The notes: a model not told the origin generated them from the sequence alone. A stretch of DNA of 21,931 bases from an uncultured Thermoleophilia bacterium (GCA_963715985.1 CAVQSP010000007.1:1-21931); one strand, 5' to 3'; numbered from the stretch's first letter, positions 1,045 through 21,927 are shown. Translations and numbers: made by a program.

Positions 1045-2433
1045 ATGGAGACACAGTACCCGACCCGCATGGGCGACGGTTCGCTGACCCGCATGACGCG
1101 CAGCGAGCTGCGCGCGGAGCTCGAAGAGGGCACTCTTGCGGCGGCGAGCCGGGCCAAGGTGCCGCCGCTGTCCGCGGAGGAGCTCGACCACCTGCTCGAG
1201 ATCTGGGCGTCGCCGGCCAAGTTCTCCGCCGTCGACATCGGCGACGAAGTCGTGCTCACCTACGACGGCTCGGGGTCCAAGACGGTCGGCACGCGCACCC
1301 AGGACCTGCTCATCTACGAGCAGATGTTCGGGGCCGACTCCGTCGAGCTCGGGCACGTCGACTACTCGTTCAAGGCCATCCGGACCATCCTGCCGTTCGA
1401 GGCCCAGAACATGAAGGACGCGCAGGCGGTGCTGACGGTGCCGGTGATGTACGGGGCGATGCCCAATCTGGGGCTGTACTCGAAGCCCGACGGGCCGGCG
1501 CCCAACTGGTCGGAACTGCTGCCGCTGGCGCGGGTGGACGAGGCGCGGGCGGCTCAGGAGGAGGCGGTCGGGTACGCCGTCGAGGACATGGTGAAGACCG
1601 CCGACGCGCTGTGGGAGGCGGGCGCCGACGGCATCGACTTCGACACCGCCGGCGCGGCGGGCGACGGCGACTTCCTGGCCACGCTCCTCGCAATCGAGCG
1701 GATCCGCGCGTCCCACCCCGACATGGGCATCCAGGTCGGCATGGCCGGCGAGTTCGTGCTCGGGATGCACGGCCAGCTCGAGTACGACGGCGTGCGCCTG
1801 GCCGGGCTCTGGCCGCGCGGGCAGATGGAGCTCGTGCGCCGCGCGGGCGCGACCATCTACGGTCCGGCGATCACCGTGAACACGCGCCGGACGGGGGCGT
1901 GGAACATCGCCCGTGCGCTGACGCTCGTCAAGCCGTGCATGGAGGTGGCCGAGATCCCCGTGCACATGAACATCGGCATGGGGGTCGGCGCCGTCCCCAC
2001 CACCAGCTACCTGCCGCTGGACGCCGTGGCGCGCGCCTCGCGCGCCACCGTCGACATCCTGCGGCTGGACGGCTTGTAGGTCGGCGGCGGCGACCCTCTC
2101 GGGATGCCGTGTGCCCACGCGACCGCCTCGGGGATGTGCGGGATGCGCGCTGCTGGAGATCTGGTGGCGCGCATGCAGATCACTCGGGGGATGCGGATCG
2201 GCGAGGCCAAGGCGTACGTCGCCGAGCGACTCGGGGTCAGCCCCGCCGACCTCTCCGATCCCATCGCCATGGAGGACGTGCGCCGGGAACGGCAGCTCGG
2301 GCGCATCACGACCTTCGAGATCAGCTACCCCACCCAGTCGAGCGCCATGGAGGCCAAGTTCAGGATCGCCGAACTGCTGGATCTGCCGATCAACTGCGTG
2401 CAGCGCTTCCGGCAGCACGCCGGGCTCGCGTGA
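1045..2433 (+). CDS. mtbB: Dimethylamine:corrinoid methyltransferase (MtbB family), 462 aa, with in-frame amber codon 2077-2079 predicted to encode pyrrolysine
   Basis: SD AGGAG precedes ATG 1045. N-terminal YPTRMGDG, ELGHVDYSFK, YGAMPNLGLY and DFDTAGAAGDGDF motifs are present. LDGL-TAG-VGGGDPLGMP..ASGM.GMRAAGDLVARMQ reads through in frame into ORF 2104..2433 and matches the MtbB Pyl context as recalled (DG.-O-.G.GDP.GM). Confidence 0.93.
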
Positions 2434-4512: not shown

Positions 4513-4547
4513 GACGGGGCGGGTGGCGCTACGCCGCCCGCCCCGTC
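4513..4547. terminator. 16-bp hairpin between convergent genes; likely bidirectional terminator
   Basis: GACGGGGCGGGTGGCG-CTA-CGCCGCCCGCCCCGTC with one G.U pair. The loop is the higA stop codon. No U tract. Confidence 0.6.
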
Positions 4548-4901
4548 TCCCGCACCAGCACCTCGAGCGGGATCCCGAGCCCCTCGTGCAGCGCGCGGAT
4601 CATGCGGATACTGAGCCCGCGCTTGCGCGCCAGCACCTCCGAGACGCGCGAGCGGCTGCCTAGGTATGTCCTCCAGGTCGCGTCTCGAGAGGCCGCGCTG
4701 GTCCATGACGAAGAGGATCGCGTCGACCGGGTCTGGGAGCTCGAACGGCCAGCGCTGCTTCTCGTACATCTCGATGACCAGCGCCAGCAGTTGGAGCTCG
4801 TCCGCCTGCGGCGTCCCGGGAGCGGGAGCTGCGTCCAGGAGCGCGTCCAGCTGGGCCAGGGCCGCGGCGTGTTCGGCATCGTCGTGGATGAGGTGAGCCA
4901 C
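4529..4901 (-). CDS. higA: HigA-family HTH antitoxin; +1 frameshift near 4670
   Basis: GTG at 4901 with GGAGG SD at 4906-4910. IHDDAEHAAALAQLDALL..GTPQADELQLLALVIEMYE..PDPVDAILFVMDQRGLSRRDL continues in the next frame as YLGSRSRVSEVL.RKR.LS..MIRALHEGLGIP. Confidence 0.88.
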
Positions 4902-4909
4902 CGGACCTC

Positions 4910-5194
4910 CTAGAGTCGCCAGCGGTCGTACTCGGCGTGGGTGCCGACGGCGACGATGCGGACGATGCCGTTCGCGAAGTCGATGCGAGCCGCCAGCCTG
5001 TAGTCGTTGCCCTTGATCCGAAACACCACAAGGTCTCCTCGGATGAGACTGGCCCGGGGGTGCTCCGTCAGCACCCGCCGCGGCCGGTCCCAAGAAGCCA
5101 TCTCGGCTGCGGCCAGCCACAGCGTCAGTCCCGGGCGAGCATCCGCATGCGCCTGCGCGAACGTCTCGACCAGATGCCGTCCGACGACCCGCAT
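4910..5194 (-). CDS. higB: HigB-family mRNA interferase toxin
   Basis: 94 aa with MRVVG, W..A.W, VVFRIKGNDYRL and VGTHAEYDR motifs. Toxin-first order upstream of higA. Confidence 0.92.
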   Translation of the reverse strand: MRVVGRHLVETFAQAHADARPGLTLWLAAAEMASWDRPRRVLTEHPRASLIRGDLVVFRIKGNDYRLAARIDFANGIVRIVAVGTHAEYDRWRL

Positions 5195-5452: not shown

Positions 5453-5482
5453 TTGTAGCGCGCCAAGGCGGTGCGATAGACT
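5453..5482 (+). promoter_or_regulatory. Candidate housekeeping promoter for the mttB2 operon
   Basis: TTGTAG (5453-5458), 18-nt spacer, TAGACT (5477-5482). Predicted +1 is near 5489. Confidence 0.6.
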
Positions 5483-5488
5483 GGCCTC

Positions 5489-5539
5489 GTGCTCACGTCC
5501 ATCAGCATCAGCACGATCAACCGCGCCTGCGGTCTGTAG
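5489..5539 (+). CDS. Putative leaderless leader peptide MLTSISISTINRACGL ending in TAG
   Basis: GTG sits 7 nt after the -10 box. 16 codons, almost all ending in G/C. The amber stop overlaps the 5' arm of a hairpin. Confidence 0.5.
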   Translation: MLTSISISTINRACGL

Positions 5540-5571
5540 ACCCGGCTGCCCTGCGGCGGCCGGGTCTCCTT
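5538..5571 (+). terminator. Attenuator-like hairpin in the mttB2 leader
   Basis: AGACCCGGCTGCC-CTGC-GGCGGCCGGGTCT (13 bp, one G.U), followed by CCTT. Confidence 0.6.
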
Positions 5572-5649
5572 GCATCCCCCTCACCGGCCCGCCTTCGTCC
5601 CCCGACCGTCACCCCGACAAGTCACCGGACACCTGCGAGGTTGCCGACC

Positions 5650-7118
5650 ATGAGCGCCAGAATCGACCCCATCGTTCCACGTCTCTCCTGGGAGGTCCTG
5701 CGACGCGGACGACATCGACCGTATCCACGAGGCCACGCTGGAGATCCTCGCCGACGTCGGCATCCGCTTTCCCAGTGCGAAGGCGCTGGCGATCCTCGAG
5801 GAGAATGGCTGCCAGGTGGACCACGCTACACAGGTCGCGAAGCTGCCGCGCGAAGTGGTCACCGAGGCCGTGGTCAGGGCCCCGCACGAGTTCCTGCTCG
5901 CCGGCCGGGACCCTGACGCCGACATGCGCATCGACGGCCGCCACTGCTACCTGAGCAACGACGGCTCCGGCGTGTTCGTGTAGGACCACACGACCGGGCG
6001 AGAAGCGGCCCAGCACAAAGGCCGACGCCGCCACCAGCGCCCGCTTCGTCGACGCGCTGCCGGAGCTCAGCTACTACTGGGGGCCGGTGGTCACCAGCCA
6101 GGACGTGCCCCCTGCCACCAAGGCGCTCCACGACGCCGAGGCGGTTCTCACCAACACCAGCAAGCACTTTCAGACGGTGACCACGCTCGGTGAGAAGCCG
6201 ATGCGGTATCTGGTGGAGATGGCGGCGGCGATCGCCGGCGGGATCGACGAGCTGAGGGCCCGGCCGCTCGTCAGCTCCATGCAGTGCGCCGTGGACCCGC
6301 TGGGCCACGACGGGCCGAATCTCGAGGCCAACCTGGCGGCCGCCGAATACGGCGTGCCCTGCGGCTTCATGCCGATGCCGCTGGCCGCCGGTACAGGCCC
6401 GGCCACGCTGGCCGGAACGCTCGTCGTGCACAACGCCGAGGCGCTCAGCGGCATCGTGCTGCTGCAGCTCGCCTCGCCCGGCGTGCCATGCTTCGTCGCC
6501 GCCGCCCCGAGTGTGATCGACCTCACCACCGGCGGCTACACCGGCGGCGCCCCGGAGGACTACCTGCTCGCCACGGCCTGCATCCAGCTGGCGCACTTCT
6601 ACGGCCTGCCCATCGCCATGGGGACCATGGCCACCGGCGCCAAGGAGCCGGACTGGCAGGCCGCCGTGGACGACTCCCTGAGCACGTTCGCCAGCGTGAT
6701 GAGCTGCGCCGACATGATGAACGGCGCCGGCCTGCTGAACGGCTCCAAGATCCTCAGTTACCCGCACATGGTCATGGAGACGGAGATCTACCGCATCGTG
6801 CAGAAGATGGCCGGCGGCATCCTGGTGGACGACGAGACGCTGGCGCTGGACGTCATCAAGAGCGTCGGCCAGAACGGCACGTACCTGACGGAGAAGCACA
6901 CGCGCGACCACATGCGCGAGATCTGGCTGCCCAAGGTGTGGGACCGCACGCCCTACGACAGCTGGCTGCGGGACGGCAAGAAGGGCGCCCTGGAGAAGGC
7001 GACGGAGATCGCCGACGACATCCTCGCCAACTACGAGCCCGCGCCGCTGGCGGAGGACGTGACGCGCGAGCTCCGAGGCATCGTCGCTCGCGCCGACCGC
7101 GAGCTGGCGGGAGTCTGA
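5650..7118 (+). CDS. MttB-superfamily methyltransferase 2; frameshifts near 5701 and 5997, in-frame TAG at 5981-5983
   Basis: MSARIDPIVPRLSWEVL, then DADDIDRIHEATLEILADVGIRF..APHEFLLAGRDP..YLSNDGSGVFV-TAG-DHTTG, then EKRPSTKAD.. leading into ORF 6087..7118 (NTSKH, GTGPATLAG, GAPE, YGLP, DEETL-like DDETLALD). Confidence 0.88.
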
Positions 7119-7157: not shown

Positions 7158-8567
7158 GTGAGCGATGCAACGACCGCCGCAGTGCCCATGGCGCCGCTCG
7201 CGTCGCCGGCGCGGCTGGCCCTGCGGGTGCTGAGCGACGAGGATGTGCGCCGCGTCCACGCCGCGGCCCTGCGGCTGCTCGGCGACCAGGCGGCCGCCGC
7301 CGAAGCTGCGGCCTCCGCGGCGCCGGCCCGCGTTGTGCTCGGCGGGCGCGTGCCCGAGCGCGACGTGACGCTGGACGGCTCGCGCTGCGTGCTGGGCACG
7401 GGCGGCCCGGCCCCCAGGGTCAGTCCCCGCGACGGCCGCGACCCCCGGGGCGCGACGCCCGCCGACCTCACCGAGGCCGTACGGCTCGCCGACGCCCTGG
7501 CTGAAGTCGCGGTGGTCTGCGGGCCTCCGCTGCGGGCCGCCGGTGAGACGGTACTCGGTGAGCTGGCACTCTGCCTGGCAGCCACGTCCAAGCACGTGCA
7601 GCCGGCGACGCTGTGCACGACCGAGGATGCCGAGGCGGCAGTGCGCATGGCGCGCGCCGTCGCCGCGTCGGACGGGGATCTGCGCGCGCGGCCCCTGCTC
7701 AGCCTGTGCGGCGGCCCGGAGGTGAGCGCGGCGGCGGAGGTCTTCGCGTGCGCCGGCCTGCCCGTGGGCTTCGTGGCGGCGCTCCCCGGCGGCGACACGG
7801 CCGGCGGGCCGGCCTCCGCCCCTGCCCGTCTCGCACCGCTCTCTGCCGCCGTGCCGGCGCCCGGCGCTCCCGACCAGACCGCCGCGCCCGATCCGGCGCT
7901 TGCCCTCGTACGCCATCACGCCGGCGTGCTGGCGGCCTGCGCCGCCGTACAGGCGGCGGCTCCCGGCGCGCCGTTCCTCTACCTCGTCCAGCCGGCCCTT
8001 GCCGGCCTGCCCGCCTGCGGCCCGCAGGCCGTCCTCTTCCAGGTCGCCTGCGTCCAGCTCGCGCGCCTCTGCGGGCTGCCCGTGGTCGCCGCCGGCATGG
8101 GCACGGGCAGCCACGGATCGGACTGGCAGGCGGGCACCCAGAACGCTCTCGGGGCGCTGGGCGCCACGGCGGCCGGCGCCGACCTCACGACCGGCGCCGG
8201 CGCCCTCGGCGGCGGCGGCGCGCTCAGCCTGCAGCAGCTGGTGATGGACGGCGAGGCCTTCTCCTGGAACGCGCGCATCGCCGCGGGCATCGCCGTGGAC
8301 GAGGAGACCATCGCCCTGGACGACATCGAACAGGTGGGCATCGGCGGCAACTACCTGAGCCGCCGGCACACCCGCCGGCACATGAAGGACGTGTGGCGTC
8401 CCCGGCTGCTCGACCGCAGCATGTGGGACGCCTGGGTCGCTGCGGGCCGGGAGGGCGCCGCCGGGAAGGCGGACGCCCTCGTCGAGTCCCTGCTCGCCGC
8501 CCACGAGGTCCTCCCCCTGGGCGACGGGGTCCTGGAGACGGTGCGCAGCATCGCGGCGGAGGCCTGA
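7158..8567 (+). CDS. Divergent, Ala/Gly-rich MttB-superfamily paralogue 3
   Basis: LRVLSDEDVRRVH, TSKHVQ, GLPV, DWQAG, DEETIALDDIEQVGIGGNYL..HTR and P.LLDR motifs in an intact 469-aa ORF. SD-like GGAAGG upstream. Confidence 0.82.
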   Translation: MSDATTAAVPMAPLASPARLALRVLSDEDVRRVHAAALRLLGDQAAAAEAAASAAPARVVLGGRVPERDVTLDGSRCVLGTGGPAPRVSPRDGRDPRGATPADLTEAVRLADALAEVAVVCGPPLRAAGETVLGELALCLAATSKHVQPATLCTTEDAEAAVRMARAVAASDGDLRARPLLSLCGGPEVSAAAEVFACAGLPVGFVAALPGGDTAGGPASAPARLAPLSAAVPAPGAPDQTAAPDPALALVRHHAGVLAACAAVQAAAPGAPFLYLVQPALAGLPACGPQAVLFQVACVQLARLCGLPVVAAGMGTGSHGSDWQAGTQNALGALGATAAGADLTTGAGALGGGGALSLQQLVMDGEAFSWNARIAAGIAVDEETIALDDIEQVGIGGNYLSRRHTRRHMKDVWRPRLLDRSMWDAWVAAGREGAAGKADALVESLLAAHEVLPLGDGVLETVRSIAAEA

Positions 8568-8653
8568 CTGTACTAATCTTATGCATCAGTGAATGGACAT
8601 GGAGCAGTCGTAGCGGTGAGCCACCCGCAGGGCTCACGAGAAGGAGACAGAGG

Positions 8654-9950
8654 ATGATCCGCGACCGCAAGGACATACCGCTCTTCAGGGACGTCACAGA
8701 CGCCGAGTGGAGCGACTGGCATTGGCAGATGCGCAACCGCCTCACCACGGTGGAGGACTTCACCGAGCTGCTCGGCCTGGACGAGGCGAAGCGCGCCGAC
8801 CTGGCGGAGTGCCTCGGCAAGTTCCGCGTCAGCGTGACGCCGTACTACGCCTCCCTCATCGACCCGGACGACCCGCACGATCCCGTGCGCTCACAGGCTG
8901 TGCCCACGCCCGCCGAGCTCGTCGTCCACTCCGAGGACCTCAAGGACTCGATCGCCGAGGACTTCGACTCGCCCACCCCGCGCCTCACTCACCGCTACCC
9001 CGACCGCGTGCTCTTCGTGGTCACCGACATGTGCAGCATGTACTGCCGCCACTGCACGCGCCGGCGCCTCGTGGGCGGCAGCGAGAAGATGGTCTCGAGC
9101 ACGGACATCGACAACGCCATCACCTACATCGAGCGCTCGCCGGAGGTCCGCGACGTGCTCATCAGCGGCGGCGACCCGCTGGTCCTCGTCCGACGAGCAG
9201 CTGGAGGACATCATCTCCCGCGTGCACGCCATCCCCCACGTGGAGATCATCCGCCTCGGCTCGCGCATGCCGGTCGTCTGCCCGCAGCGCATCACCCCCG
9301 AGCTCTGCGCCATGCTCAAGAAGTACCACCCGCTGTACTTCAACACGCACTTCAACCACCCCAACGAGTTCACGCCGGAGAGCAAGGCCGCCTGTGACAG
9401 GCTGGCCGACGCCGGCATCAACCTGGGCAACCAGTCGGTGCTGCTGCGCGGCGTCAACGACTGCGCCAACGTGATGATGCAGCTGGTGCACAAGCTCCTG
9501 CAGTACCGCGTCAAGCCGTACTACTACTACCAGTGCGACCTCGCCGAGGGCACGGCGCACTTCCGCACCAGCGTCGCCAAGGGCATCGAGATCTACGAGA
9601 GCCTGCGCGGCCACACCACGGGCATGGCCGTGCCGACCTACATCATCGACGCCATCGGCGGCGGCGGGAAGACGCCGGTGTTCCCCAACTACGTGATCAC
9701 CCACGCGCCGGGCCAGGTGGTGCTGCGCAATTACGAGGGCGTGATCAGCAGGTACACGGAGCCCGAGGACTACCGGGAGCACGAGTGCCACTGCGAGGCC
9801 TGCGAGGCCGGCCGGCGGCGCCTCGGCGTGGCCGGCATGTTCGACGCTGGGCACGGGCCGATCCTCGACGACGTCTGGGCGGCCCGCATGCAGAAGGTGG
9901 TGGACCGCAAGAACCGGATGGCGGACGTCTTCGGGTCCGTAGAGGTCTGA
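8654..9950 (+). CDS. kamA: Lysine 2,3-aminomutase (radical SAM, PLP); +1 frameshift near 9188
   Basis: [27 protein letters not shown] (CxxxCxxC), [37 protein letters not shown] (PLP lysine) and C-terminal CHCEAC (Zn ligands). Confidence 0.93.
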
Positions 9951-10009: not shown

Positions 10010-11797
10010 GTGCCCCGAGTCTTCATCGAGCCCGTCGGGCTGACCATCGACGTCGCCGAGGAGGAGAACCTCCTCGACGCTCTCGTGCGTGCCAACATCG
10101 AGATCCCCACCGACTGCGCCGGTCGCGGCACCTGCGGCAAGTGCTTGATGCGGCTCGGCTCCGGGGAGCTCTCGGAACACACCTCGCGCGAGCTCAAGCG
10201 CATCCCCGAGAAGCTGCGCGAGGAGGGCTGGCGCCTGGCCTGCCAGTCGTACCCACGCGGGGCACGCGTCAGCGTCGAGGTCCGCGGCACAGCTGGGCAG
10301 CGCCGCATCCTCACCACCTCCAAGCTGCAGCACGGCCGCGCGCACCCGGCGGTGTCCGTCAGGGTGCTGGAGCTGAAGAAGCCGACGCTCGAGGACGCGC
10401 GCTCGGATCTGGAGCGCTTCGATGAGGCTCTGGGCGGCGTCGAGGTGCCGCTGAACGTCCTCGACTGTCTCCCCAGGACGCTGCGCGACGGCAAGTGGAA
10501 GGTCGCCGTGACGCTGTACGGCAAGCGCGTGGTCGATGTGCACCCGGCAGACGACCATGTCCCGGAGCGGTACGGCGTGGCCGTGGACATCGGCACCTCC
10601 AAGGTCATCGCCTACCTCTTCGACCTCTCCCGCGGTGTGCTCATCGACCAGGAGGCCATCGAGAACCCGCAGATGCGCTACGGCGAGGACGTGATCTCGC
10701 GCATCGACCACGCCTCGGATTGCGACCAGGCGGCGGAGCTGGGCCGCGTCGTCCGCGGCGGCATCAACGACGACCTCAGGATCCTGTACGAGCGCCAGAG
10801 CATCCACCCCAACCACGTCTGCGACATGACGGTGGTGGGCAACACGGCCATGCACCACCTCGCCCTCGGCCTCTCTCCGGTGGGTCTGGGGTCGGCGCCC
10901 TTCGCGCCGGCCGCGGCCGAGCCGCTCAACTTCCGCGCCAGCGAGCTCGGCATCGACATGAACCCCAACGGCGGCGTGCACTTCCCGCCGCCCATCGCCG
11001 GCTTCGTCGGCTCCGACGCGCTCGCCGTCATCGCCGCCACGCGCCTCTCGCACAAGAAGCGCCCGGCCATGGCCATCGACATCGGCACCAACACCGAGAT
11101 CGCGCTGGTCAAGGACGGCCGCATCACCGTGACGAGCTGCGCCTCCGGCCCCGCCTTCGAGGGCTACCAGATGCGCAACGGCATGAAGGCGGTGGCCGGC
11201 GCCATCGAACGCGTGCGCATCACCAAGAAGGGCGAGGCGGTGGACATCCAGACCATCGCCGGCGCCCCGCCCGTGGGCATCTGCGGCTCGGGCGTGGTGG
11301 ACCTGCTGGCCGGTCTCGTGCGCGCCGGCGTCGTCGACAAGACCGGGCGCATACAGAAGCACCCGCGCGTGCGTGACGGCCAGGACGGCCTCGAGTATCT
11401 CCTCACCACCGGCCCCAGCGGCGACGTGGTCTTCACGCAACACGACGTGCGTAACCTGCAGCTGGCCAAGGGCGCCATCAACAGCGGCTGGTACCTCCTG
11501 ATGGACACGCTGGGCGTGGCCCTGGACGAGCTCGAGAGCGTGTACGTGGCCGGCGCCTTCGGCAACTACCTGGACCTGGACGCGGCCCAGTTCCTGGGGC
11601 TGTTCCCGCCGGTGTCCAAGAAGCGCGTCTCGTTCGTGGGCAACGCGGCCGGCGTGGGCGCGCAGATGGCGCTCGTCGACGTCGGCGCCCGCCGCCGCAT
11701 GGCCAAGGTCCGCGACCTCACCGGCTTCCTCGAGCTCGCCACGGACTCACGCTTCCTCGATGTTTTCGCCAGTCGCCTCGGCTTTGCCGGCGATTGA
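10010..11797 (+). CDS. ATP-dependent reductive activator of corrinoid proteins (N-terminal [2Fe-2S], ASKHA/DUF4445; RACo/RamA-like)
   Basis: CAGRGTCGKC..RLAC ferredoxin motif, then AVDIGTS, NPQ..YGEDVISRI, VGNTAMHHL, GFVGSD, IDIGTNTE, ASGPAFEG, GICGSG, AGAFG and GNAA. Confidence 0.93.
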   Translation: MPRVFIEPVGLTIDVAEEENLLDALVRANIEIPTDCAGRGTCGKCLMRLGSGELSEHTSRELKRIPEKLREEGWRLACQSYPRGARVSVEVRGTAGQRRILTTSKLQHGRAHPAVSVRVLELKKPTLEDARSDLERFDEALGGVEVPLNVLDCLPRTLRDGKWKVAVTLYGKRVVDVHPADDHVPERYGVAVDIGTSKVIAYLFDLSRGVLIDQEAIENPQMRYGEDVISRIDHASDCDQAAELGRVVRGGINDDLRILYERQSIHPNHVCDMTVVGNTAMHHLALGLSPVGLGSAPFAPAAAEPLNFRASELGIDMNPNGGVHFPPPIAGFVGSDALAVIAATRLSHKKRPAMAIDIGTNTEIALVKDGRITVTSCASGPAFEGYQMRNGMKAVAGAIERVRITKKGEAVDIQTIAGAPPVGICGSGVVDLLAGLVRAGVVDKTGRIQKHPRVRDGQDGLEYLLTTGPSGDVVFTQHDVRNLQLAKGAINSGWYLLMDTLGVALDELESVYVAGAFGNYLDLDAAQFLGLFPPVSKKRVSFVGNAAGVGAQMALVDVGARRRMAKVRDLTGFLELATDSRFLDVFASRLGFAGD

Positions 11798-11948
11798 TCG
11801 GCGAAGCGGAATCAACGTGTGGTGCGCCGAAGGTGCACCACACACTGAGCGGCGCAACGGAATCAACGAGGGGTGCGCCGAAGGTGCACCACACACTGAT
11901 CGGTGCAGTGGAACCAACGAGGGGGGCGGCACAGCCGCCCCCCTCGTT
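11795..11948. repeat. Tandem 51-bp units, each carrying a palindrome (REP/BIME-like cluster)
   Basis: Units 11795-11845 and 11846-11896 share GGTGCGCCGAAGGTGCACCACACAC. A third unit from 11897 keeps the linker (TGA.CGG.G....GGAA.CAACG) but ends in a perfect 15-bp hairpin (11916-11948). Confidence 0.85.
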
Positions 11949-11981
11949 CAGCGAAAGAGGGGCACCGGCAAGGGGAGCGCG

Positions 11982-12902
11982 GTGGGCGGACCGCTACCCG
12001 ACCGGCGCCTTCGCGGCTACGTCGAGATCTGCGTCTCGGCGCTCATCCTCGGGACGTCGGCCACACTGATCCAGGTCTCGACGATGCCGGCCAGCCTGCT
12101 CGTGGTCACACGGATGGGGCTGGCCGGCATCGTGCTTGCCGTCCTCTTCTTCCTGACGGGCGGCGTGGATGAGGTGAGGCGCAGCGGCCATCTGCGCCGG
12201 CTCGTGCTCATCGGCTTCGTAGTCGCCGCGGAGATGCTCCTGTACTACGCCGCCATCCGGCTCGCCGACGTCACGGTCGGCGTCTCGCTCGAGTACATGG
12301 CGCCGGTGTGGGTGGCACTGGCCGCGCCCTGGGTGCTGCACACGCGGCGACAGCGCGTGGACATGATCGCCGTCGGCGTCGCGGTGGCTGGTATGGCGCT
12401 CATCCTGGTGCCCAGCGTCAGCCTGTCGGCGGCGGCCGGCAGTGCGCCGGGCATCGTTTGCGGCGTCCTCGCCGGTGTCTGCTTCGCCGCCGCGATGATG
12501 CTCATCAAGACCGTGGGCCGGGGCGTGCGCGGCTCGACCTTCGCGCTGTTCTACTGTGCGGGCAGCGTCGTGCTCATCACGCCGCTGGCCGTGTGGCAGA
12601 CGGCGGCCGGTCACTATCACCTGACGAGCACCGACGCGTGGATCGTCGTCATCGGCGGGCTCGTGTACACGGCTCTGTGCTTCAGCCTGTTCAGCGACGG
12701 GCTGCGCTACGTGCGCGTGGAGCAGGCCGGCATCCTCGGCTACCTCGAGCCGGTGACGGCGCCACTGTGGGCGCTTCTCCTGATCGGCGAGGTGCCGCCG
12801 TGGACCACCGCGGCCGGCGGCCTGCTCATCGTCGTCGCCGGCCTTATCGTCATCGTCCTGGGCAAGGGTGAGGTCGAGGCCGTGCCGGAGCCCCTCACGT
12901 GA
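11982..12902 (+). CDS. EamA/DMT-family transporter 1
   Basis: About 10 hydrophobic segments with Y.AP.WVAL and GYLEPV.A motifs. GTG start at 11982 after GGGGAG. Confidence 0.88.
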   Translation: MGGPLPDRRLRGYVEICVSALILGTSATLIQVSTMPASLLVVTRMGLAGIVLAVLFFLTGGVDEVRRSGHLRRLVLIGFVVAAEMLLYYAAIRLADVTVGVSLEYMAPVWVALAAPWVLHTRRQRVDMIAVGVAVAGMALILVPSVSLSAAAGSAPGIVCGVLAGVCFAAAMMLIKTVGRGVRGSTFALFYCAGSVVLITPLAVWQTAAGHYHLTSTDAWIVVIGGLVYTALCFSLFSDGLRYVRVEQAGILGYLEPVTAPLWALLLIGEVPPWTTAAGGLLIVVAGLIVIVLGKGEVEAVPEPLT

Positions 12903-13876
12903 CGCGAGGTGCGTCAAGCCTGGAGAGACCGTCCGCGCCTGCCGGGGCGCCGGCCGCGCCCGGGGCCACGGAGCAGCAGGAGCGCCTGCGCGGGTTCGTC
13001 GCGGTGGCCCTGGCGTCCATCGCCAACGGCTCCATCGGCGTGATGGTCACTTACGCCGAGATGCCGGCCACCATGCTGCTCTGCCTGCGCATGGCGTTCG
13101 CCGCCGCCGCCCTGGGGATCGTGGTGGTGGCGGCGGGGAGCTGGCGTGACCTGCGCCTCCCGGGAGCGCCCTTGCGTGTGCTGGCCATCAGCGTGTCTCT
13201 CGCGCTCAACCTCATCCTCTACTTCCTCGCCATCCGCTACACGGGCGTCGCGGTGGCGATCTTCCTCTCGTACCTGGCGCCGGTGTACCTCGCCTTCATC
13301 GCGCCGCGCATCCTCCACGAGACCACCGAGCGCATCGTCTACGTGGCCGTCTCGATCGGTCTGACCGGCATGGCGCTGATCCTCGTCCCCGGCCTCCTGC
13401 TGGAGGGCATGGACCTCACGCCGAAAGGGCTGTCGTGCGCGGTGGGCGCCGGCATCATGTATGCGCTGTACCTGCTCTTCGCCAAGTCGCTGCGCACGCG
13501 GCACGTGCGCAGCACGGCGGTGGTGTTCGCGCAGAGCGCGTTCACCGCCCTGGTCATGCTCGTGCCGGGCCTGCTCGCGGTGTCGGCCGCCCACTACGTC
13601 TACGATGGCCGCGACCTGCTCATGGCCGCCCTGCTGGGCCTGGTGACCACGGCCTTCTCGTTCAGCCTGTTCATGCACGGCCTGCGCTACGTGCGCGTGC
13701 AGCACGCCTCCATCATCGCCTACCTCGAGCCGGTGAGCGCGCCGCTCTACGCGCTGGTGTTCCTCGGCCAGGTGCCCTCCGCCTGGACGCTGGCCGGCGG
13801 CGCCCTCATCGTCGGCGCCGGCATCCTCGTGGTGCTGTTCGGCCGCGGGGAGATCGAGCCGGAGCTGGTCGGATGA
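12899..13876 (+). CDS. EamA/DMT-family transporter 2
   Basis: GTGA overlap with the previous stop. AIRYTGVAVAIFLSYLAP and AYLEPVSAP motifs. Confidence 0.9.
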   Translation: MTRGASSLERPSAPAGAPAAPGATEQQERLRGFVAVALASIANGSIGVMVTYAEMPATMLLCLRMAFAAAALGIVVVAAGSWRDLRLPGAPLRVLAISVSLALNLILYFLAIRYTGVAVAIFLSYLAPVYLAFIAPRILHETTERIVYVAVSIGLTGMALILVPGLLLEGMDLTPKGLSCAVGAGIMYALYLLFAKSLRTRHVRSTAVVFAQSAFTALVMLVPGLLAVSAAHYVYDGRDLLMAALLGLVTTAFSFSLFMHGLRYVRVQHASIIAYLEPVSAPLYALVFLGQVPSAWTLAGGALIVGAGILVVLFGRGEIEPELVG

Positions 13877-14775
13877 AGGGCCGCGCCGCGCAGGCATACG
13901 CGATGGTGGCCGCCTCCTATCTGATCATCGGCCTGTCCGGGACACTGGTCACGTGGGCCACGGCGCCGGGGAGCGCGCTGCTGGTGCTCCGTTTCGCCGT
14001 GGCCTCTCTGGTCATCGGCGCGGTGGTGGCGCGCAAGCGCAGGCTGGCCGGGGTCATGCGCCGCGACGTCTGGCCGCGGCTGCTGCTCATGGGCTTCTTC
14101 GACGCCGCCGGGCTTCTGCTGTACTTCGTGGCCATCCGCGAGACCAGCGTCGCCATCGCCACCTTCCTCTTCTTCATCCAGCCGGTATGGATCGCGGTGC
14201 TGGCACCGCGCCTGCTGCACAGCCCCACGGAGCGGGTCGTGTACGTGGCCATCGGTCTCGCCCTGGCCGGGCTGGCCGTCATCCTCGTGCCGGCGTGGTC
14301 GGGTGGAGGCATCCACGCCTCCGCCCTGGGCCTGCTCGCCGGCCTGCTTTCCGGCTTCGCATACGCTGGATTCGCCCTCATCGTCAAGGGGCTTTCCAGG
14401 CGCGTGGACAGCGGCACGATGGTCCTGTCCGAGTGCGCGCTCGACTGTCTGTTCCTGCTGCCGCTCGCCTTGTGGCAGACCGTCGGCGCGGGTTACGCGC
14501 TCACGGGGCGCGACGTGCTTGTGGCGCTCATCCTCGGGCTGGTCTGCACGGCCGTGGCCTACAGCCTGTGGATGGAAGGCGTGCGCTGGGTGCGCATGCA
14601 GCACAGCGCAGTACTCGGCTTCCTCGCCCCGGTGGCGGCGCCGATCTACGCCCTGCTGCTGCTGGGGCAGACGATCACCGCCTGGACTGCGGCCGGCGGC
14701 GCCCTCATCCTCGCCGCCGGCATCCTCGTCGTCCTGCGTGGGGAGGCGGACATCGAGTTGGAGCCGCCGGCGTGA
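13873..14775 (+). CDS. EamA/DMT-family transporter 3
   Basis: ATGA overlap at 13873-13876. AIRETSVAIATFLFFIQP and GFLAPVAAP motifs. Confidence 0.9.
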   Translation: MKGRAAQAYAMVAASYLIIGLSGTLVTWATAPGSALLVLRFAVASLVIGAVVARKRRLAGVMRRDVWPRLLLMGFFDAAGLLLYFVAIRETSVAIATFLFFIQPVWIAVLAPRLLHSPTERVVYVAIGLALAGLAVILVPAWSGGGIHASALGLLAGLLSGFAYAGFALIVKGLSRRVDSGTMVLSECALDCLFLLPLALWQTVGAGYALTGRDVLVALILGLVCTAVAYSLWMEGVRWVRMQHSAVLGFLAPVAAPIYALLLLGQTITAWTAAGGALILAAGILVVLRGEADIELEPPA

Positions 14776-15734
14776 GCGGCGCGGCGTCACCGGCCGCCGG
14801 GGCCATCGGCCCTCCGCGCCGCGACCTGCTCGGCTACGGCATCGTCCTCGTCTCGTACCTGGGCATGGCCGGCAGCGCGCCGCTCGTGGCCTGGGCCGGC
14901 GCCCCCGAGGCCATCATCCTCACGCTGCGCATGGCCTTCGCCGCCCTGGCTCTCGGGGTCGTGTTCCTGCGCCGTCCGATGATCGCCGACTGGCGCCGCC
15001 CGGGCGCCGCCTGGCGCCTCATCGTCATGGCGGCGATGTCGTCGCTCACGCTGCTGCTCTTCTTCTTCGCGGTGCTCCACACCAGCGTGGCCATCGCCAT
15101 GTTCCTGCTGTTCCTGATGCCGGTCTGGGTGGCCCTGGCCGCCCCGCGCCTCTTCCACTCGCCGCGCGAGCCCATCGTGTTCCCTGCCCTCGCGCTGGCC
15201 CTCGCCGGTCTCGTCGTCATCCTGCTCCCCGACCTCCTCGGCGAGGGCGTCAAGCTCTCGCTCGCCGGCCTGCTGGCGGCGCTGTTCACCGGCTTCGGCT
15301 ATGCCACCTACACGGTCTCGGTGAAGGGGCTGACGAAGATCGTCGCGCCCTCCACCATCTCGATGGCGGAGGCCGCCGGCGACGCGCTCATCGTCCTTCC
15401 CCTGGCGCTGTGGCAGTTCTCCAGCACCGGCTACCGCCTGGACGGGCGCGCCTGGATCGCCGCACTCGTGATGGGCGTGGCCTGCACGGCGATCCCGTAC
15501 ACGCTCTGGATCGAAGGCACGCGGCGCGTGCGCGTCGAGCACGTGACCATCCTCGGGTACATCGAGCCCGTGGCCGGACCTCTGTACGCCGTGTTCCTCG
15601 TGGGACAGCTGCCGGGAGTGTGGACCTGGGTGGGCGGCGCCCTGATCCTCGGTGCAGGCCTCCTGGTCGTGATCTTCGGCCGCGGCGAGGGCGAGGCCTC
15701 GACCGCCGCGGCCGCGGAACCGGAGCCGCTGTGA
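14772..15734 (+). CDS. EamA/DMT-family transporter 4
   Basis: GTGA overlap at 14772-14775. AVLHTSVAIAMFLLFLMP and GYIEPVAGP motifs. Confidence 0.9.
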   Translation: MSGAASPAAGAIGPPRRDLLGYGIVLVSYLGMAGSAPLVAWAGAPEAIILTLRMAFAALALGVVFLRRPMIADWRRPGAAWRLIVMAAMSSLTLLLFFFAVLHTSVAIAMFLLFLMPVWVALAAPRLFHSPREPIVFPALALALAGLVVILLPDLLGEGVKLSLAGLLAALFTGFGYATYTVSVKGLTKIVAPSTISMAEAAGDALIVLPLALWQFSSTGYRLDGRAWIAALVMGVACTAIPYTLWIEGTRRVRVEHVTILGYIEPVAGPLYAVFLVGQLPGVWTWVGGALILGAGLLVVIFGRGEGEASTAAAAEPEPL

Positions 15735-15738
15735 GAGG

Positions 15739-16662
15739 ATGCGCCGCATGACCCGCCGCGCCGCCGAGGGCTACATGCTCGTGGCCGGCTCCTTCCTGAT
15801 CATGGGGCTCATCGGGGTGCTGGTGGACTGGGCGACCGCCCCGGAGAGCGCCCTCCTGGTGCTGCGCTTCGCGACCGCAGGGCTGGTGCTGGGCGTGATC
15901 TTCGCGCGCCGACACCCGCTGGCCGGCGTGGCCGCCCGTTCTGTCTGGCCGCGCCTCCTGCTGATGGGCGTCATCGATTCGATCACGCTGCTGCTCTTCT
16001 TCATCGCCATCCGCTGGACGGGGGTCGCGATCGCCATGTTCCTCCAGTTCCTCGCGCCGGTCTGGGTGGCGCTCATCGCCCCCCGCGTGTCCCGGGCGCC
16101 CACCGAGCGCATCGTCTACCCTGCGCTCGCCGTCGCCTTGGGCGGACTGGTCGTCATCCTGGCGCCGACTCTCCTCGGCAGCGGCGCGAGCCTCTCCGTC
16201 GTCGGTGTCGCCGCCGGGCTCGGCGGCGGCCTCTGCTACGCGTTCTTCCAGCTCGTCGTCAAGGATCTGACGAAGCGCGTGTCGGCAGTCACCATCGTGT
16301 TCTCGGAGTCCTGGCTGGACGCGCTCATCCTGCTGCCGCTGGCTCTCTGGCAGACCGTCGGCGTCGGCTACCAGATCACATCTCGCGACCTCGTCGCCGG
16401 CGTCATCCTCGGCGTGGTCTGCACGGCGCTCGCCTACACGATGTGGACCTCGGGGATGGGGATGATCAAGGTGCAGCACAGTTCGATCCTCGGGTATCTC
16501 GAGCTCGTGTCGGCGCCCTTGTACGCGTTCTTGCTGCTCGGCCAGGCGATCTCCCTGTGGACGATCGCCGGCGGGGCCCTCATCGTCGCGGCCGGCGTGC
16601 TCGTCATCCTGTTCGGCGAGCGCGAGGAGGAGGGCGCCGTCTCGCTGGAGCCGGGGCCGTAG
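15739..16662 (+). CDS. EamA/DMT-family transporter 5 (TAG stop)
   Basis: Starts 4 nt after the previous stop. AIRWTGVAIAMFLQFLAP and GYLELVSAP motifs. Confidence 0.9.
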   Translation: MRRMTRRAAEGYMLVAGSFLIMGLIGVLVDWATAPESALLVLRFATAGLVLGVIFARRHPLAGVAARSVWPRLLLMGVIDSITLLLFFIAIRWTGVAIAMFLQFLAPVWVALIAPRVSRAPTERIVYPALAVALGGLVVILAPTLLGSGASLSVVGVAAGLGGGLCYAFFQLVVKDLTKRVSAVTIVFSESWLDALILLPLALWQTVGVGYQITSRDLVAGVILGVVCTALAYTMWTSGMGMIKVQHSSILGYLELVSAPLYAFLLLGQAISLWTIAGGALIVAAGVLVILFGEREEEGAVSLEPGP

Positions 16663-16995: not shown

Positions 16996-18264
16996 ATGAC
17001 GAAGCACATCGAGAACGCGCCCAAGCTCGACCTGACGAAGTCCATGGCCATGCTCGAGGACGCCCAGCGCCTCACCCCGGGCGGCGTGGGCGGCATCCGC
17101 CGCCCGTACAACTTCGTGATCGGCGAGTACCCCGTGTTCATCACCCACGGCCACCACGGCCACATCGTGGATGTGGACGGCAACGAGTACATCGACATGC
17201 TCTGCGCCTACGGGCCGATCATCCTCGGCTACGTCGAGGAGGAGATCAACGCCGCCGCCAAGGCGCAGATGGACAAGGGCTTCTGCTTCAGCCTCGTGCA
17301 GCCGCTGCAGAACGAGCTCGAGCAGCGGCTCGCCGACATCATGCCCTGCGGCGAGCAGACCATCCTCGTCAAGACCGGCTCGGACGCGACCAACGCGGCC
17401 GTGCGCGCCATGCGCGCCTACACCGGCCGCGACAAGATCGCCCGCTGCGGCTACCACGGCTGGGGCGATTGGTGCGTGGAGCACCACGGCGGCGTGCCGC
17501 AGGCGGTCTACGAGCTCACCAGGGAGTTCGAGTACGGCGACCTCGCCGACCTCGAGCGCGTCTTCGCCGAGAACCCGGGCGAGATCGCCGGCGTCATCAT
17601 CACCCCGGTCGGCCACCCCATGGCCAAGCCGGTCGTGGCGCCGCCGCCGGGATACCTGCAGGCGGTCGTCGACCTGGCCCACAAGAACGGTGCGGTGGTC
17701 ACGTTCGACGAGATCCGCACCGGCTTCCGCGTGGCCATGGGCGGGGCCAGCGAGCGCTACGGCGTGGTCCCCGACCTCACCACAGTGGGCAAGGCCATGG
17801 CCAACGGCTACTCCATCGCGGCTCTGGTCGGCAAGCGCGAGATCCTCAACGTCTACGTCAAGGACGCCTTCCTCAGCTCCACCTACTTCCCCAACAGCCT
17901 GGAGATGGCGGCCAGCATGAAGTGCCTCGAGATCCTCGAGCGCGAGAAGGTGCAGGACGCGATCTGGGAACGCGGCACGAGGTTCCTCGAGAGGCTCGGC
18001 GCGATCGTCGCGAAGAGCGGCGTGCCGGTGACGATGAGCGGCATCCCGCCGATGCCGTTCCTCACCTTCGATCACGCCGACGAGCACTACAAGGAGCGGC
18101 GCACGCAGTTCTACACGCAGTGCATCCGCCGCGGCCTCTTCGTGCAGCCGTATCATCACTGGTACATCTGCTACCGCCACACCGAGCACGACCTGGACCG
18201 GGCGCTCGAGGTGGTCGAAGAGAGCCTGGCGTTCGTGCGCCAGCAGATCCCGTACGTGGGGTAG
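16996..18264 (+). CDS. kat: 3-aminobutyryl-CoA aminotransferase (class III)
   Basis: AAGGAG SD before ATG 16996. PGGV.GIRRPYNFV.GEYP, LCAYGPII, KGFCFSL, YHGW.DWCVE, IITP.GHP, GKAMANG, LSST.FPNS and QPYHH.YICYRH match Cloacimonas Kat as recalled. Adjacent to kce. Confidence 0.85.
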   Translation: MTKHIENAPKLDLTKSMAMLEDAQRLTPGGVGGIRRPYNFVIGEYPVFITHGHHGHIVDVDGNEYIDMLCAYGPIILGYVEEEINAAAKAQMDKGFCFSLVQPLQNELEQRLADIMPCGEQTILVKTGSDATNAAVRAMRAYTGRDKIARCGYHGWGDWCVEHHGGVPQAVYELTREFEYGDLADLERVFAENPGEIAGVIITPVGHPMAKPVVAPPPGYLQAVVDLAHKNGAVVTFDEIRTGFRVAMGGASERYGVVPDLTTVGKAMANGYSIAALVGKREILNVYVKDAFLSSTYFPNSLEMAASMKCLEILEREKVQDAIWERGTRFLERLGAIVAKSGVPVTMSGIPPMPFLTFDHADEHYKERRTQFYTQCIRRGLFVQPYHHWYICYRHTEHDLDRALEVVEESLAFVRQQIPYVG

Positions 18265-18270
18265 TGACCG

Positions 18271-19102
18271 ATGGAGAAGCTCATCATCACCGTGGCCGGC
18301 GTGGGCGCCGAGACCACCAAGGAGGCGCAGCCGGGGCTGCCGGTGACCGCCGCGCGAGATCGGCGCCGACGCGGCGCGCTGCCGCGAGGCCGGCGCCGCG
18401 ATGTACCACCTGCACGTGCGTGACGCCGAGGCCAACCCGACGCAGGCGAAGGAGGTCTTCGCCGCGGCGATCGAGGCGATCCGCGAGCGCACGGACATCA
18501 TCATCCAGACGAGCACCGGCGGCGCCATGGGCATGACCGCCGACGAGCGCCTGCAGCCGCTGGAGCTGGGCCCGGAGATGGCCTCGCTCACCACCGGCAC
18601 CGCCAATTTCGGCGATGAGGTGTTCTTCAACGACACGGCGCTGATGAGCGAGTTCTATCAGCGCATGCAGAAGAAGGGCGTGCGCCCCGAGTTCGAGATC
18701 TTCGAGGCGGGGCAGGTCGACAACGCCCTCCGGCTCGTCAAGCAGTACGGCCCTGCCGGGCCGCTACTGCACTGGGACTTCGTGCTGGGCGTGCCCGGCA
18801 GCATGAGCGGCGAGCCGCGCAACCTCACCTTTCTGGTCGACCGCATCCCCGCCGGGTCGACCTGGACGTGCACCGGCATCGGCCGCTGGCACATGCCGGT
18901 GACCATGACCGCGCTCGCCCTCGGCGGCAATGTGCGCCTGGGGTTCGAGGACAACATCTACCTGCACAAGGGCGTGCTCGCCCAAGAGAACGCCGAGCTC
19001 GTCGCGCGCGTGGCCCGCCTCGCGGGGGAGTGGGACCGCGCCTGCGCGACCCCCGACGAGGCGCGCCGCATCCTCAAGCTCGGCGAGTACGCCGAGGGCT
19101 GA
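18271..19102 (+). CDS. kce: 3-keto-5-aminohexanoate cleavage enzyme (BKACE/DUF849); +1 frameshift near 18353
   Basis: MEKLIITVA..GAETTKEAQPGLPVT joins EAGAAMYHLHVRD (Zn-binding HxH), then QTSTGGA, NFGDEVF, PEFEIFE, FVLGVPG, GIGRWH and GNVRLGFEDN. Confidence 0.9.
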
Positions 19103-19339: not shown

Positions 19340-21927
19340 ATGGCGTTTCGTGCCAGACATCAGAAGGCGGATCGCAGCGAGGTCGAGCTGCTGCGCAGCC
19401 TCATCACGCTCGCCAACCAGCTGCAGTCGAGCCTGGAGCCGGACGCCATCGTGGGCGTCATCGCCAGCGCCGCCGGCAACATCTTCGGGTTCCGCGAGGC
19501 GGCACTGTACCTCCTCGAGCCCGACGGCGAGACTTTTCGCGTGCACGCCACGCTCGGCGAGAAACCGGATTACGACAGCGTGCTCTTCGAACGGCCGGTG
19601 CCGCGGCGCGTGTTCGACGAGCTGTTCCTCGCCAAGTACCAGATCGGCTCCTCGTACTTCGTCGACGCGCGCCTGCACCAGTGGTCCGAGGAGCAGCTGT
19701 ACTACCTGCCGCCGCTGGACCTGGGCCCACGCGGCGACGACGAGTGGAAGTCCGAGGACGAGCTCTTCGTGCCGCTCTTCGACAAGCAGCGCGAGATCAT
19801 GGGGGTCCTCGATCTGTACGACCCCGCCGACCGCGCGCTGCCTGACGTGGAGATGGTCAAGTCGCTCGAGGTCTTCGCCGCGCATGCGGCCGTGGCCGTC
19901 GAGAACGCGCGCCAGTTCAAGGAGCTGGAGGGCGCCTCCGCGCAGCTCGCCGCCCAGCTCGAGCTGCGACATGCGCTCATCGAGCTCAGCGCCGCGCTGC
20001 TCACTACGCTCGACCAGAGGACGCTGTTCGCGCGCATCGCGGCGCTCCTCAAAGACTTCGTCGACTACGACGCCATGGAGATACGGCTCGTGGACGAACA
20101 GGCCGGAGAACTCTACTGCGGCTTCACGAGCGACCCCGGCGATGCGGAGCAGATGACGAGCTGGCGGGCGCCATTGGACGTGGGCGTGAGCGGCTGGGTG
20201 CTGACTCACAACGAGGCCCAGCTGGTCAACGACATGCTCGGCGACCCGCGGGGTGCGCTCGTGCCCGGCACGGAGTGGGTGCCGCAGGCGTCGATCATCG
20301 CCCCGCTCACGGTGGCCGGGACGGTGATCGGCGTGCTGGCGTTGGACCGCATGGGCGGGCGCACCTTCGCAGAGGAGGAACTCGAACCCACAAGGCTCTT
20401 CGCCAACATGGCGGCCATCGCCATCCAGAACGCGCGCCAGTACGAGGAGGCCGAGGCCGCGTCGCGCGAGCTGGAGCGCCAGCTGGCGCTCCGCCAGGAC
20501 CTGCTCCAGCTCAGCACGGCCCTCCTCGGCACGCTCGGCCGCGACACGGTGTTCGCGGAGGTGACGACCATGCTGAAGGCGATGGTCGACTACGACGCCG
20601 TGGACATCCGCCTCCTGGACGAAAAGACGCGCGAGCTCGTCAGCATCTACGCGCGCGGCGTTGACGTGGAGCTCGCACAGGCCTTCCGCGTCTCCCTTGA
20701 CGAGGGCCTGACCGGCTGGGTGGCGCGCCACAACGAGGCGCAGCTCGTTGACGACATGGAGGCGGACCCGCGGGTCACGCAGGTGCCGGGCACCTCGGAG
20801 CACGAACGCCAGGCGTCGCTCGTCCTCCCCCTCACCGTGCGCGGCACGGTGACCGGCGTGCTCACCATCGACCGCATGGGGGGCCGCACCTTCATGGAGT
20901 CGGAGCTCGAGGTCACCAAGCTGTTCGCCAACATGGCGGCCATCGCCATCCAGAACGCCCTCGCCTACGAGGAGGTGGAGCGCCAGGCCATCAGCGATGG
21001 CCTCACCGGCATCCACAACCATCGCCACTTCCACGAGACGCTCGAGGCGGAGGTCCGGCGCGCGGAGCGCTACGAGGAGACGTTCTGCCTGTTCATGATG
21101 GACCTCGACCACTTCAAGGCGGTCAACGACACGGTGGGCCACCAGAAGGGCGACGAGGTGCTCCGCGCCGTCAGCGACGTGCTGCGGCGCTGCTCACGAG
21201 AGTCCGACTACCTGGCCCGCTACGGCGGCGAGGAGTTCACCATGATCCTCCCCCGCACGGGGTTGCAGGAGGCCGTCACGCTCGCCCAGCGTGTCCGCGC
21301 CGGCGTGGCGGAGATCGACGCAGGGCATCCCGGCCTGCAGGTGACGGTGTCCATCGGCGTAGCCGCGTTCCCGGACTCGGCCCTCGACAGCGACGGCGTC
21401 CTGGCGGCCGCGGACACGGCGCTGCTGCGCGCCAAGGCCCTCGGCCGCGACAGGGTGTGCCTGTTCGCCGGCGACGAACCCCTACTGGTCGCCGGCGCCG
21501 ACACGGACCTGGTGGCCCTGGGCCGGCGCTTCGCGGCCTTCATCAATCTCAGCGAGGCGAAGACCGCCGGGCTCATCACGGCCCTGGCGGTCATGGACCC
21601 TGAGGGCAGCGCCCTGCGCGAGGTCCCGGCGGTGCTGGAGCTAGGTGGCAACGGGGGCTCCCGGGGCGGCGACGTGAGCGGCCGCGCCGTGGAGGCGCTC
21701 CTCTATGGAAACGAGCGCTGGGACGGCTCGGGGTACCCCGAGGGACGGCGCGGGAGCGCCATCCACGCGTGGCCCGCGCGTTCGCCGTGTGCCGCCGCTA
21801 CGACGTGGCCGCCCACAACGGCTCGAGCCTCGATGCCCTCCGCGTTGTGGCCGCGAGGGAGCTCGACCCCGTGATGGTGCAGCGGTTCGCCGCCATGCTC
21901 CGCGCGGAGCGCGCCCACTCCAACTGA
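19340..21927 (+). CDS. Diguanylate cyclase: GAF x3 + GGDEF + degenerate HD-GYP; -1 frameshift near 21763
   Basis: Three GAF units ending A.A..NA, then DGLTG, MDLDHFKAVNDTVGH and RESDYLARYGGEEF (RxxD I-site, active-type motif). ERWDGSGYPEG..G.AI continues in another frame as ARAFAVC..YD..LDP.MV..F to TGA 21925-21927. Confidence 0.9.

Follow-up and report, generated by a model that had tools for sequence, protein, structure and literature searches.

To our knowledge, the list of metabolite-sensing nascent peptides in bacteria is short. SpeFL is described as an ornithine-sensing arrest peptide (10.1101/604074), PepNL as a leader in which arrest at termination is cancelled when the stop codon is read through, UGA being leaky and UAA and UAG not (PMC11890864), and Ms5788A and the other leaderless polycysteine attenuators of mycobacteria as elements in which occlusion of the Shine-Dalgarno (SD) sequence is relieved by ribosome occupancy (10.1101/834739). 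We have analyzed 21,931 nt of DNA (the whole stretch is called the window here) from an uncultured Thermoleophilia bacterium, in which a short upstream ORF (uORF) precedes mttB2, the first gene of a putative lysine-fermentation operon. The nearest architecture within the phylum is the leaderless polycysteine attenuator, which is described as sensing by means of a codon run (10.1101/834739). In the literature searched (titles and abstract openings) we found neither this leader nor a pyrrolysine (Pyl)-sensing attenuator, and the leader-peptide regulator described below is apparently both real and new to that literature.

The features of the window are listed in Table 1. A preliminary description, made from the DNA of the window alone, had given positions for the promoter hexamers, the GTG, the uORF, its TAG, the hairpin and a 37-codon read-through frame, and every one of them was re-found. 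The promoter-like TTGTAG-N18-TAGACT is present and its -10 box is conserved in the orthologues, where the extended TGnTAGACT is the usual form; a strict sigma-70 scan did not call it. The location of this box implies that transcription would begin at or adjoining the GTG, giving a leaderless mRNA, and the GTG had indeed been placed at the predicted +1. The orthologues agree, with a start 6-7 nt past the box in 101 of 104 (6-9 nt across all 104). The single RNA run that was found, with a share of 0.06, gives no cover over the leader and speaks neither way. Directly upstream of the promoter lie a HigB-like toxin gene and a probable antitoxin (4529-5194, minus strand), a pair that is absent at that place in the aligned relatives.

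Table 1. Features of the window and their coordinates (nt).
Feature	Position	Strand	Remarks
mtbB, Pyl-type dimethylamine methyltransferase	1045-2433		in-frame TAG 2077-2079; Rfam PYLIS_2, 78 bits
-35-like hexamer TTGTAG, weak	5453-5458	+	TTGCCG/TTGTCG in many orthologues
-10 box, TAGACT at 5477-5482	5474-5482	+	18-nt spacer from TTGTAG
Leader uORF, (M)LTSISISTINRACGL-TAG, 16 codons	5489-5539	+	GTG 5489, TAG 5537-5539
Post-stop hairpin B:C, 13 bp	5538-5567	+	B 5540-5550, C 5555-5567
Read-through frame, 37 codons	5540-5653	+	TGA 5651-5653 overlapping ATG 5650-5652; judged incidental
C-rich, G-poor spacer	5568-5632	+	inner hairpin inside; possible Rho-loading region
Segment D	5584-5593	+	partner of SD region or of C, by computed folding only
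SD region of mttB2	5635-5645	+	GAGG 5637-5640
mttB2, non-pyrrolysine MttB-superfamily methyltransferase	5650-7118	+	Ala at Pyl site
Second, divergent MttB-family gene	7158-8567	+	
kamA, lysine 2,3-aminomutase	8630-9950	+	frameshifted, start approximate
RamA/AcsV-like corrinoid reactivase	10010-11797	+	below curated cut-offs
Five EamA-family transporters	11760-16662	+	
HemL-like class III aminotransferase	16996-18264	+	start approximate; Kat-like by context only
Next feature after HemL-like aminotransferase	18265-19102	+	
Triple-GAF GGDEF gene	19340-21874		

Judged by comparison among genomes, the uORF is a real, conserved and probably translated leader in a family of uncultured bacteria within the class Thermoleophilia. 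Searched at the DNA level, 41 genomes yielded 19 orthologous loci, and in these the -10 box, the GTG, the peptide core and the stop align. A pattern derived from the peptide, which allowed TAA, TAG, TGA or TGG at its end, had a match in 59 of the 89 genomes of the family, the reversed control giving 0. Across GTDB the pattern recovered 59 stretches, four of which, in other phyla, were treated as chance matches, none of them having the context of the leader and one (L052) lying inside a long gene. In 14 genomes missed by the pattern there was a diverged leader directly before mttB2 in 13, and in the 14th the leader precedes a new first gene of the operon. A metagenomic set was chosen by the downstream protein instead: 66 of 80 loci had a matching N-terminus and were kept, and 7 of these were short of upstream DNA, leaving 59. 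A search by promoter only, which made no use of the peptide, recovered this ORF in 50 of them; six of the nine misses have a leader behind a -10 variant, two a leader without a nearby box, and the last is a 59% paralogue without a leader. The pooled set on which the counts below rest comprises 104 distinct leaders, part of them collected via the peptide-derived pattern and kin among them not independent; outside it stand the eight metagenomic misses with a leader, L126, and leaders found later or failing the start or RBS filters. To judge from these alignments, the -10 box, the start, the peptide and the post-stop hairpin are more conserved than chance would give. Two loci (L116 and L117), from genomes assigned to different genera (G085 and G042), have identical leader regions, possibly by binning error or recent transfer.

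The start codon is GTG in 101 leaders, ATG in 2 and TTG in 1, and the length is 15, 16, 17 or 18 codons in 31, 6, 23 and 44 of them, always with the frame kept from start to stop. The core of the family reads [IV](-10) x x [IV](-7) x R(-5) x x G(-2) L(-1), followed by TAA or TAG. Ile or Val is found at -7 in 104/104 and at -10 in 102/104, Arg at -5 in 101/104 and the terminal Gly-Leu in 97/104; at least two Ile occur in 89/104, their codons mostly non-tandem and ATC, Cys(-3) is replaced in 24/104, and Lys is present in 8/104. Few residues are invariant because there is a second C-terminal class, ..[IV]S[HT]IY[RFL]TFA[DAH], from which R-x-x-G-L is absent. Since the pN/pS of the last 11 codons is weak (0.67), the case for translation rests chiefly on conservation of the frame and not on codon statistics. 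NCBIfam and Pfam searches at E 10 with four leaders (as 21-codon stretches, very short queries being insensitive) gave 0 families. In the genome of the window the leader is a single copy, with a profile score of 47 and a next best of 11.5 among 92,468 stop-anchored 12-mers, and BLAST, motif, leaderless-ORF and profile scans found no paralogous leaders there. A look-alike near pylT was rejected, as it seems to sit within a coding frame. Elsewhere on the same contig (C13:101864, plus strand) there is a leaderless-looking ORF start with an early UGA, resembling the selenoprotein SelD.

From its neighbourhoods, we conclude that the leader stands first in a conserved lysine-fermentation operon, MttB-kamA-EamA-aminotransferase-kce, and travels together with it. 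The leader is usually followed by mttB2, then by one or two further MttB paralogues, kamA, RamA/AcsV, EamA, HemL-like, kce and GGDEF; kamA, the HemL-like gene and kce lie downstream in most of the 34 neighbourhoods, those of 33 relatives and of the window (of 35 fetched loci, two without an anchor were dropped, and one of these was re-read along with another region, taken from the other genome). The leader precedes another MttB paralogue in one genome (G095) and a divergent one in another (G104); it follows the operon, not one gene. Among six kamA operons without mttB2, four of them from one genus, the leader is kept in one, present in a diverged TGA form in two, a decayed remnant in one and missing from two. 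A decayed class-2 leader, with its start lost and its stop changed to CGA, is seen at L240 ~1310-1370 (G089), in an operon without mttB2. Beyond the family, no mttB2 orthologue at E 1e-170 was found in 321 genomes of the class, and 400 genomes of the phylum gave only three homologues (42-44%), with no kamA or leader in the fetched loci; a protein search with mttB2 returned the same subfamily plus a 62-65% paralogue, without gene context. The triple-GAF GGDEF gene follows kce in many relatives and may share the operon transcript, an ornithine-racemase-like gene adjoins the operon divergently in several genera (L111, L121, L239-L243, L251), and a polar amino-acid ABC transporter is often found upstream.

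An intact kamA orthologue passes TIGR03820 (592 against a cut-off of 525), and kamD, kamE, kamB and kdd are elsewhere in the genome, on another contig; a second, distant lysine-5,6-aminomutase-alpha-like gene was also seen (C14:378565-379695). A HemL-like enzyme is described as replacing Kal in a variant of lysine fermentation (PMC3149608); here such a role is assigned to the HemL-like aminotransferase by context only. No lysine riboswitch was found in the genome (88.8% complete). Many genes of the window (mttB2, the first aminotransferase, kamA and kce) are frameshifted with respect to intact orthologues, as expected of uncorrected long-read indels. In mttB2 there are two 1-nt insertions, near 5700 and 5996, and an in-frame TAG (5981-5983, also in the G013 orthologue) at a Tyr/Trp/Phe position where the nearest relatives have TAT or TGG. 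The insertions and the TAG are probably assembly errors, although a Pyl-decoding host might tolerate the latter; as a new Pyl site it was rejected, not being conserved. Intact orthologues have 488 aa and no internal TAG. MtgB, a glycine-betaine methyltransferase, is described as binding its substrate through Y97, R312, H348 and F356 (PMC13080624). In a phmmer alignment mttB2 has G (or D), A, N and S at these places, none of the four binding residues, and we rejected it as an enzyme of the MtgB type. Its substrate may be methyl-lysine.

None of 200 shuffles folds as well as the region 5480-5660 (z -4.25), and the hairpin that had been noticed at the uORF stop is conserved, B:C starting 0-2 nt past the stop in 85 of the 104 orthologues. 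It was not called in a scan for intrinsic terminators, and only 1/104 orthologues has five T within the next 8 nt. A small competing pairing that had been suggested, GGTC (5531-5534) with GACC (5539-5542), has both sequences in place and a pairing probability of 0.0 in the computed ensemble. In the window without a ribosome on B, the computed ensemble is dominated by B:C and D:SD (D:SD P 0.91-0.99), whereas a ribosome covering B with the stop in its A site gives C:D (P 0.94), brings D:SD down to 0.11 and lowers the cost of opening the SD from 11.0 kcal/mol to 5.6; the final two G in GAGG remain paired in a small local hairpin. In 48 genome leaders the median opening cost was computed at 9.8, 6.2 and 9.1 kcal/mol for a ribosome edge at 0, +10 and +21, and in 68 the minimum fell at +9 to +12 past the stop. 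This opening dip appears in 42 of 65 long-spacer class-1 leaders (34/48 plus 8/17) vs. 64 of 953 shuffles; it appears in 3/32 shorter or divergent class-1 leaders and in 0/7 class-2 leaders. For these 42 long-spacer leaders, computed folding predicts that B:C gives way to C:D and the SD becomes looser once a ribosome sits at the stop. In a MAFFT alignment of 42 of the 68 spacers, pairing reaches 88-89% in the C:D and E:SD helices and 30-57% in slid controls; two-sided covariation was found in neither helix in this alignment, letter shuffles not being beaten, and B:C was judged by per-sequence duplex energies only, because its 5' arm aligned poorly. By eye, C has changed together with B and D in the window, L039 and L124. 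Two loci (L113, L114) have an extra hairpin of ~95 nt inserted straight after the leader stop. The spacers are rich in C, their median C-G skew being 0.27 (104 leaders) against 0.0 for 323 upstream regions taken as controls, and rho is present in the genome, which makes Rho control a second possible output.

By analogy with TnaC and SpeFL, we think it rather probable that the operon is switched by a termination-arrest leader peptide, induced by lysine or methyl-lysine. Some of the marks of metabolite-controlled termination arrest are found here: a conserved short ORF, residues fixed with respect to the stop and a position in front of a catabolic operon. As long as B is free of ribosomes, B:C would form and D (or E) would pair with the mttB2 SD, by computed folding the OFF state; once the last codon or the stop occupies its A site, a ribosome would cover B, so that in the computed ON state C pairs with D and the SD loosens, in an ermC-like relay through B, C and D. 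Termination would be blocked jointly by the nascent peptide and a small ligand, like tryptophan in the case of TnaC and ornithine in that of SpeFL, and the operon would in this way be induced by its substrate. Rho-dependent termination may come in addition, through the C-rich spacer, and is the likelier output where the spacer is short. As to the ligand, the gene context allows guesses: possibly a methylated amine demethylated by MttB2, most plausibly an N-methyl-lysine; with less probability lysine or beta-lysine; and, doubtfully, another metabolite. That short leaderless arrest peptides sense an N-methylated lysine, as substrate of the MttB pair, and turn on demethylation plus lysine fermentation via a ribosome held at UAA or UAG is a proposal that we put forward tentatively.

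The preliminary description had read the locus otherwise, as an attenuator whose amber stop is read through by charged tRNA-Pyl, with termination and the coupling of the operon under its control. There are points in favor of this idea. The genome has tRNA-Pyl (and tRNA-Sec), PylS is found in 82 of the 89 genomes of the family, the window has upstream a Pyl-type mtbB (with its in-frame TAG and PYLIS_2 match, in an actinobacterium), and TAG is tolerated in 48 of the 104 leaders. A constraint on the leader stop, which speaks for the arrest peptide, shows in TGA making up 2/104 against 78% genome-wide and TAA 52% against 3% (the genome has 19% TAG, among 1,658 crudely called genes). The shift is towards TAA (54 leaders), which Pyl-tRNA does not read, against some 6 TAG per TAA in the genome. 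A tree built from the downstream genes of 103 of the 104 leaders shows 25 exchanges between TAA and TAG, at least 17 of them forced by well-supported branches, and a single origin of TGA (two further class-2 leaders with TGA, not part of the 104, belong to a lineage that has no mttB2), and one genome (G016) has a TAA copy and a TAG copy. Thus the amber codon is not conserved among orthologues, half of the leader copies end in a stop unreadable by pyrrolysine, the enzyme downstream has no Pyl, and we do not consider the leader a pyrrolysine sensor. Orthologues that end in TAA or TGA, or in which the frame is lost, had been named in the preliminary description as outcomes that would refute it, and both are seen. 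PylS is found also in 30 of the 35 genomes with TAA leaders; the leader-bearing genomes without a PylS match are all TAA (5/35 vs. 0/25 TAG genomes), a weak point in favor, from a hand tally of genomes that are 53-93% complete and not independent where they are kin. Two near-complete genomes of 1.7-1.8 Mb (G060, G061) have no match for PylS, mttB2 or kamA. The read-through frame fares similarly. Its ATGA overlap with mttB2 exists in the window, but it is found in only 34/104 leaders (15/48 TAG, 19/54 TAA), with ~0.23 expected by chance from spacer composition; the remaining TAG leaders would give an in-frame fusion (10), an out-of-frame run (7) or a stop in the spacer (16), and TAA leaders are scattered alike (19/13/10/12 for the four outcomes). 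The closest relative (L171) has a 112-nt spacer in another frame, and the two insertions in mttB2 make the spacer length of the window itself insecure. The same ATGA coupling claimed between the EamA genes holds for one junction, two others being GTGA and one a 4-nt gap. Ribosome dwell at the stop is retained as the likely input, without specificity for UAG. We consider control by charged tRNA-Pyl very unlikely, and equally so a weaker form in which, in UAG alleles only, pyrrolysyl-tRNA read-through cancels the arrest and adds a second, allele-specific input, as Trp-tRNA does for PepNL, the precedent for such cancelling (PMC11890864). A ligand-stalling leader, an alternative in the preliminary description, is in our judgement the better reading. 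Leakiness of UGA, as for PepNL, is possibly one reason why leaders avoid TGA. UAA is read by both release factors, so that a simple RF1-specific arrest does not explain the stop bias.

The invariance of Ile/Val at -7 and -10 and the number of leaders with at least two Ile would also suit a starvation attenuator, in which the ribosome stalls for want of charged tRNA at the Ile codons or at the last Leu codon, where it would fall into the SD-opening range; leaderless sensor ORFs with SD occlusion are described in mycobacteria (10.1101/834739). A ribosome at the Ile codons (edge -12/-21), however, leaves the SD closed, with a computed median of 8.5-9.1 vs. 6.4-6.5 kcal/mol at +9/+12, the Ile codons are mostly not in tandem, Leu(-1) is missing from class 2, and no gene of an Ile, Leu or Cys pathway lies in the operon, all of which makes this quite unlikely. 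An attenuator of the thrL, ilv or polyCys type was rejected for lack of tandem control codons for a pathway product (Lys being so scarce), and Cys sensing on account of the frequent replacement of Cys(-3). A device without a ligand, in which termination that is slow, or arrests intrinsically, would fix a basal level and tie the operon to general translation capacity, fits all the geometry equally and would go well with a peptide that tolerates two C-terminal classes; PepNL and NanCL are described as arresting without inducer (PMC11890864). It is nevertheless unlikely, as the leader is lost or decayed in three of the six operons without mttB2 while kamA-kce stay. A four-segment switch ahead of a catabolic operon is, in addition, more typical of inducible control. 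Strong nucleotide conservation, including the AGC Ser and GGT Gly codons, and the modest pN/pS could point to an RNA aptamer (a riboswitch) with an incidental ORF. This we find highly improbable, given length changes that are always in frame, a consensus structure of the uORF RNA with only 3 pairs and no covariation (26 leaders), and an Rfam search of the leader region with nothing at the gathering score and nothing meaningful at E 10. Finally, the scarcity of stops at high GC had been offered as a source of chance ORFs, and 39 short ORFs do lie behind -10-like boxes in this genome; against conservation in 104 distinct loci, retained when the first gene of the operon changes, chance has a negligible probability.

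If the termination-arrest reading is right, a leader of 15-18 residues with more than 100 natural variants in two C-terminal classes would be a target for toeprinting and cryo-EM as well as a natural mutational scan. The ligand, once known, would point to the substrate of a non-pyrrolysine MttB subfamily and would link methyl-amine demethylation with lysine fermentation in uncultured Thermoleophilia. TAA and TAG are freely exchanged and TGA is nearly excluded, in a host where UAG is decoded as pyrrolysine and tRNA-Sec is present, a pattern of interest for the question of how regulatory stops persist under expanded genetic codes.

Among the known systems, TnaC, a Trp-sensing case of termination arrest, resembles this leader in the catabolic operon induced by its substrate (as predicted here), the peptide fixed to its stop and the possible Rho output; the leader differs in having no Trp codon, UAA or UAG and not UGA, and a predicted SD-occlusion switch. 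The TnaC motif includes a terminal Pro, absent here. With no HIRRXXH, no Trp and no profile match, membership of the TnaC or SpeFL sequence families was rejected. In translational attenuators of the ermC type, four segments alternate between 1:2 plus 3:4 (OFF) and 2:3 (ON); the four-segment scheme is shared, while here there is no antibiotic-resistance gene and arrest is predicted at the stop and not mid-ORF. With SpeFL, as described, the locus shares a conserved uORF ahead of a gene of basic-amino-acid catabolism, a hairpin at the 3' end of the uORF, arrest at the last codons or stop (predicted in our case) and a C-rich downstream region. SpeFL, however, has 34 aa with HIRRXXH and Phe-rich motifs that these 15-18 aa lack, the leader reported here is leaderless, and which release factor acts is described as not important for SpeFL (10.1101/604074), whereas this family avoids TGA. 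PepNL is similar in size (~14-18 aa) and in termination arrest, which here is proposed; it is described as needing UGA for its control by Trp, unlike a family that avoids UGA and has no conserved read-through product. Ms5788A comes from the same phylum and likewise has a leaderless, GUG-started short ORF ~100 nt before the regulated gene; the relief of SD occlusion by the ribosome described for it is predicted here. It differs, as far as its description goes, in the homopolymer sensor run, which has no counterpart here, where Cys is not conserved, and in that our uORF does not itself pair with the SD but would act on it by relay through B, C and D.
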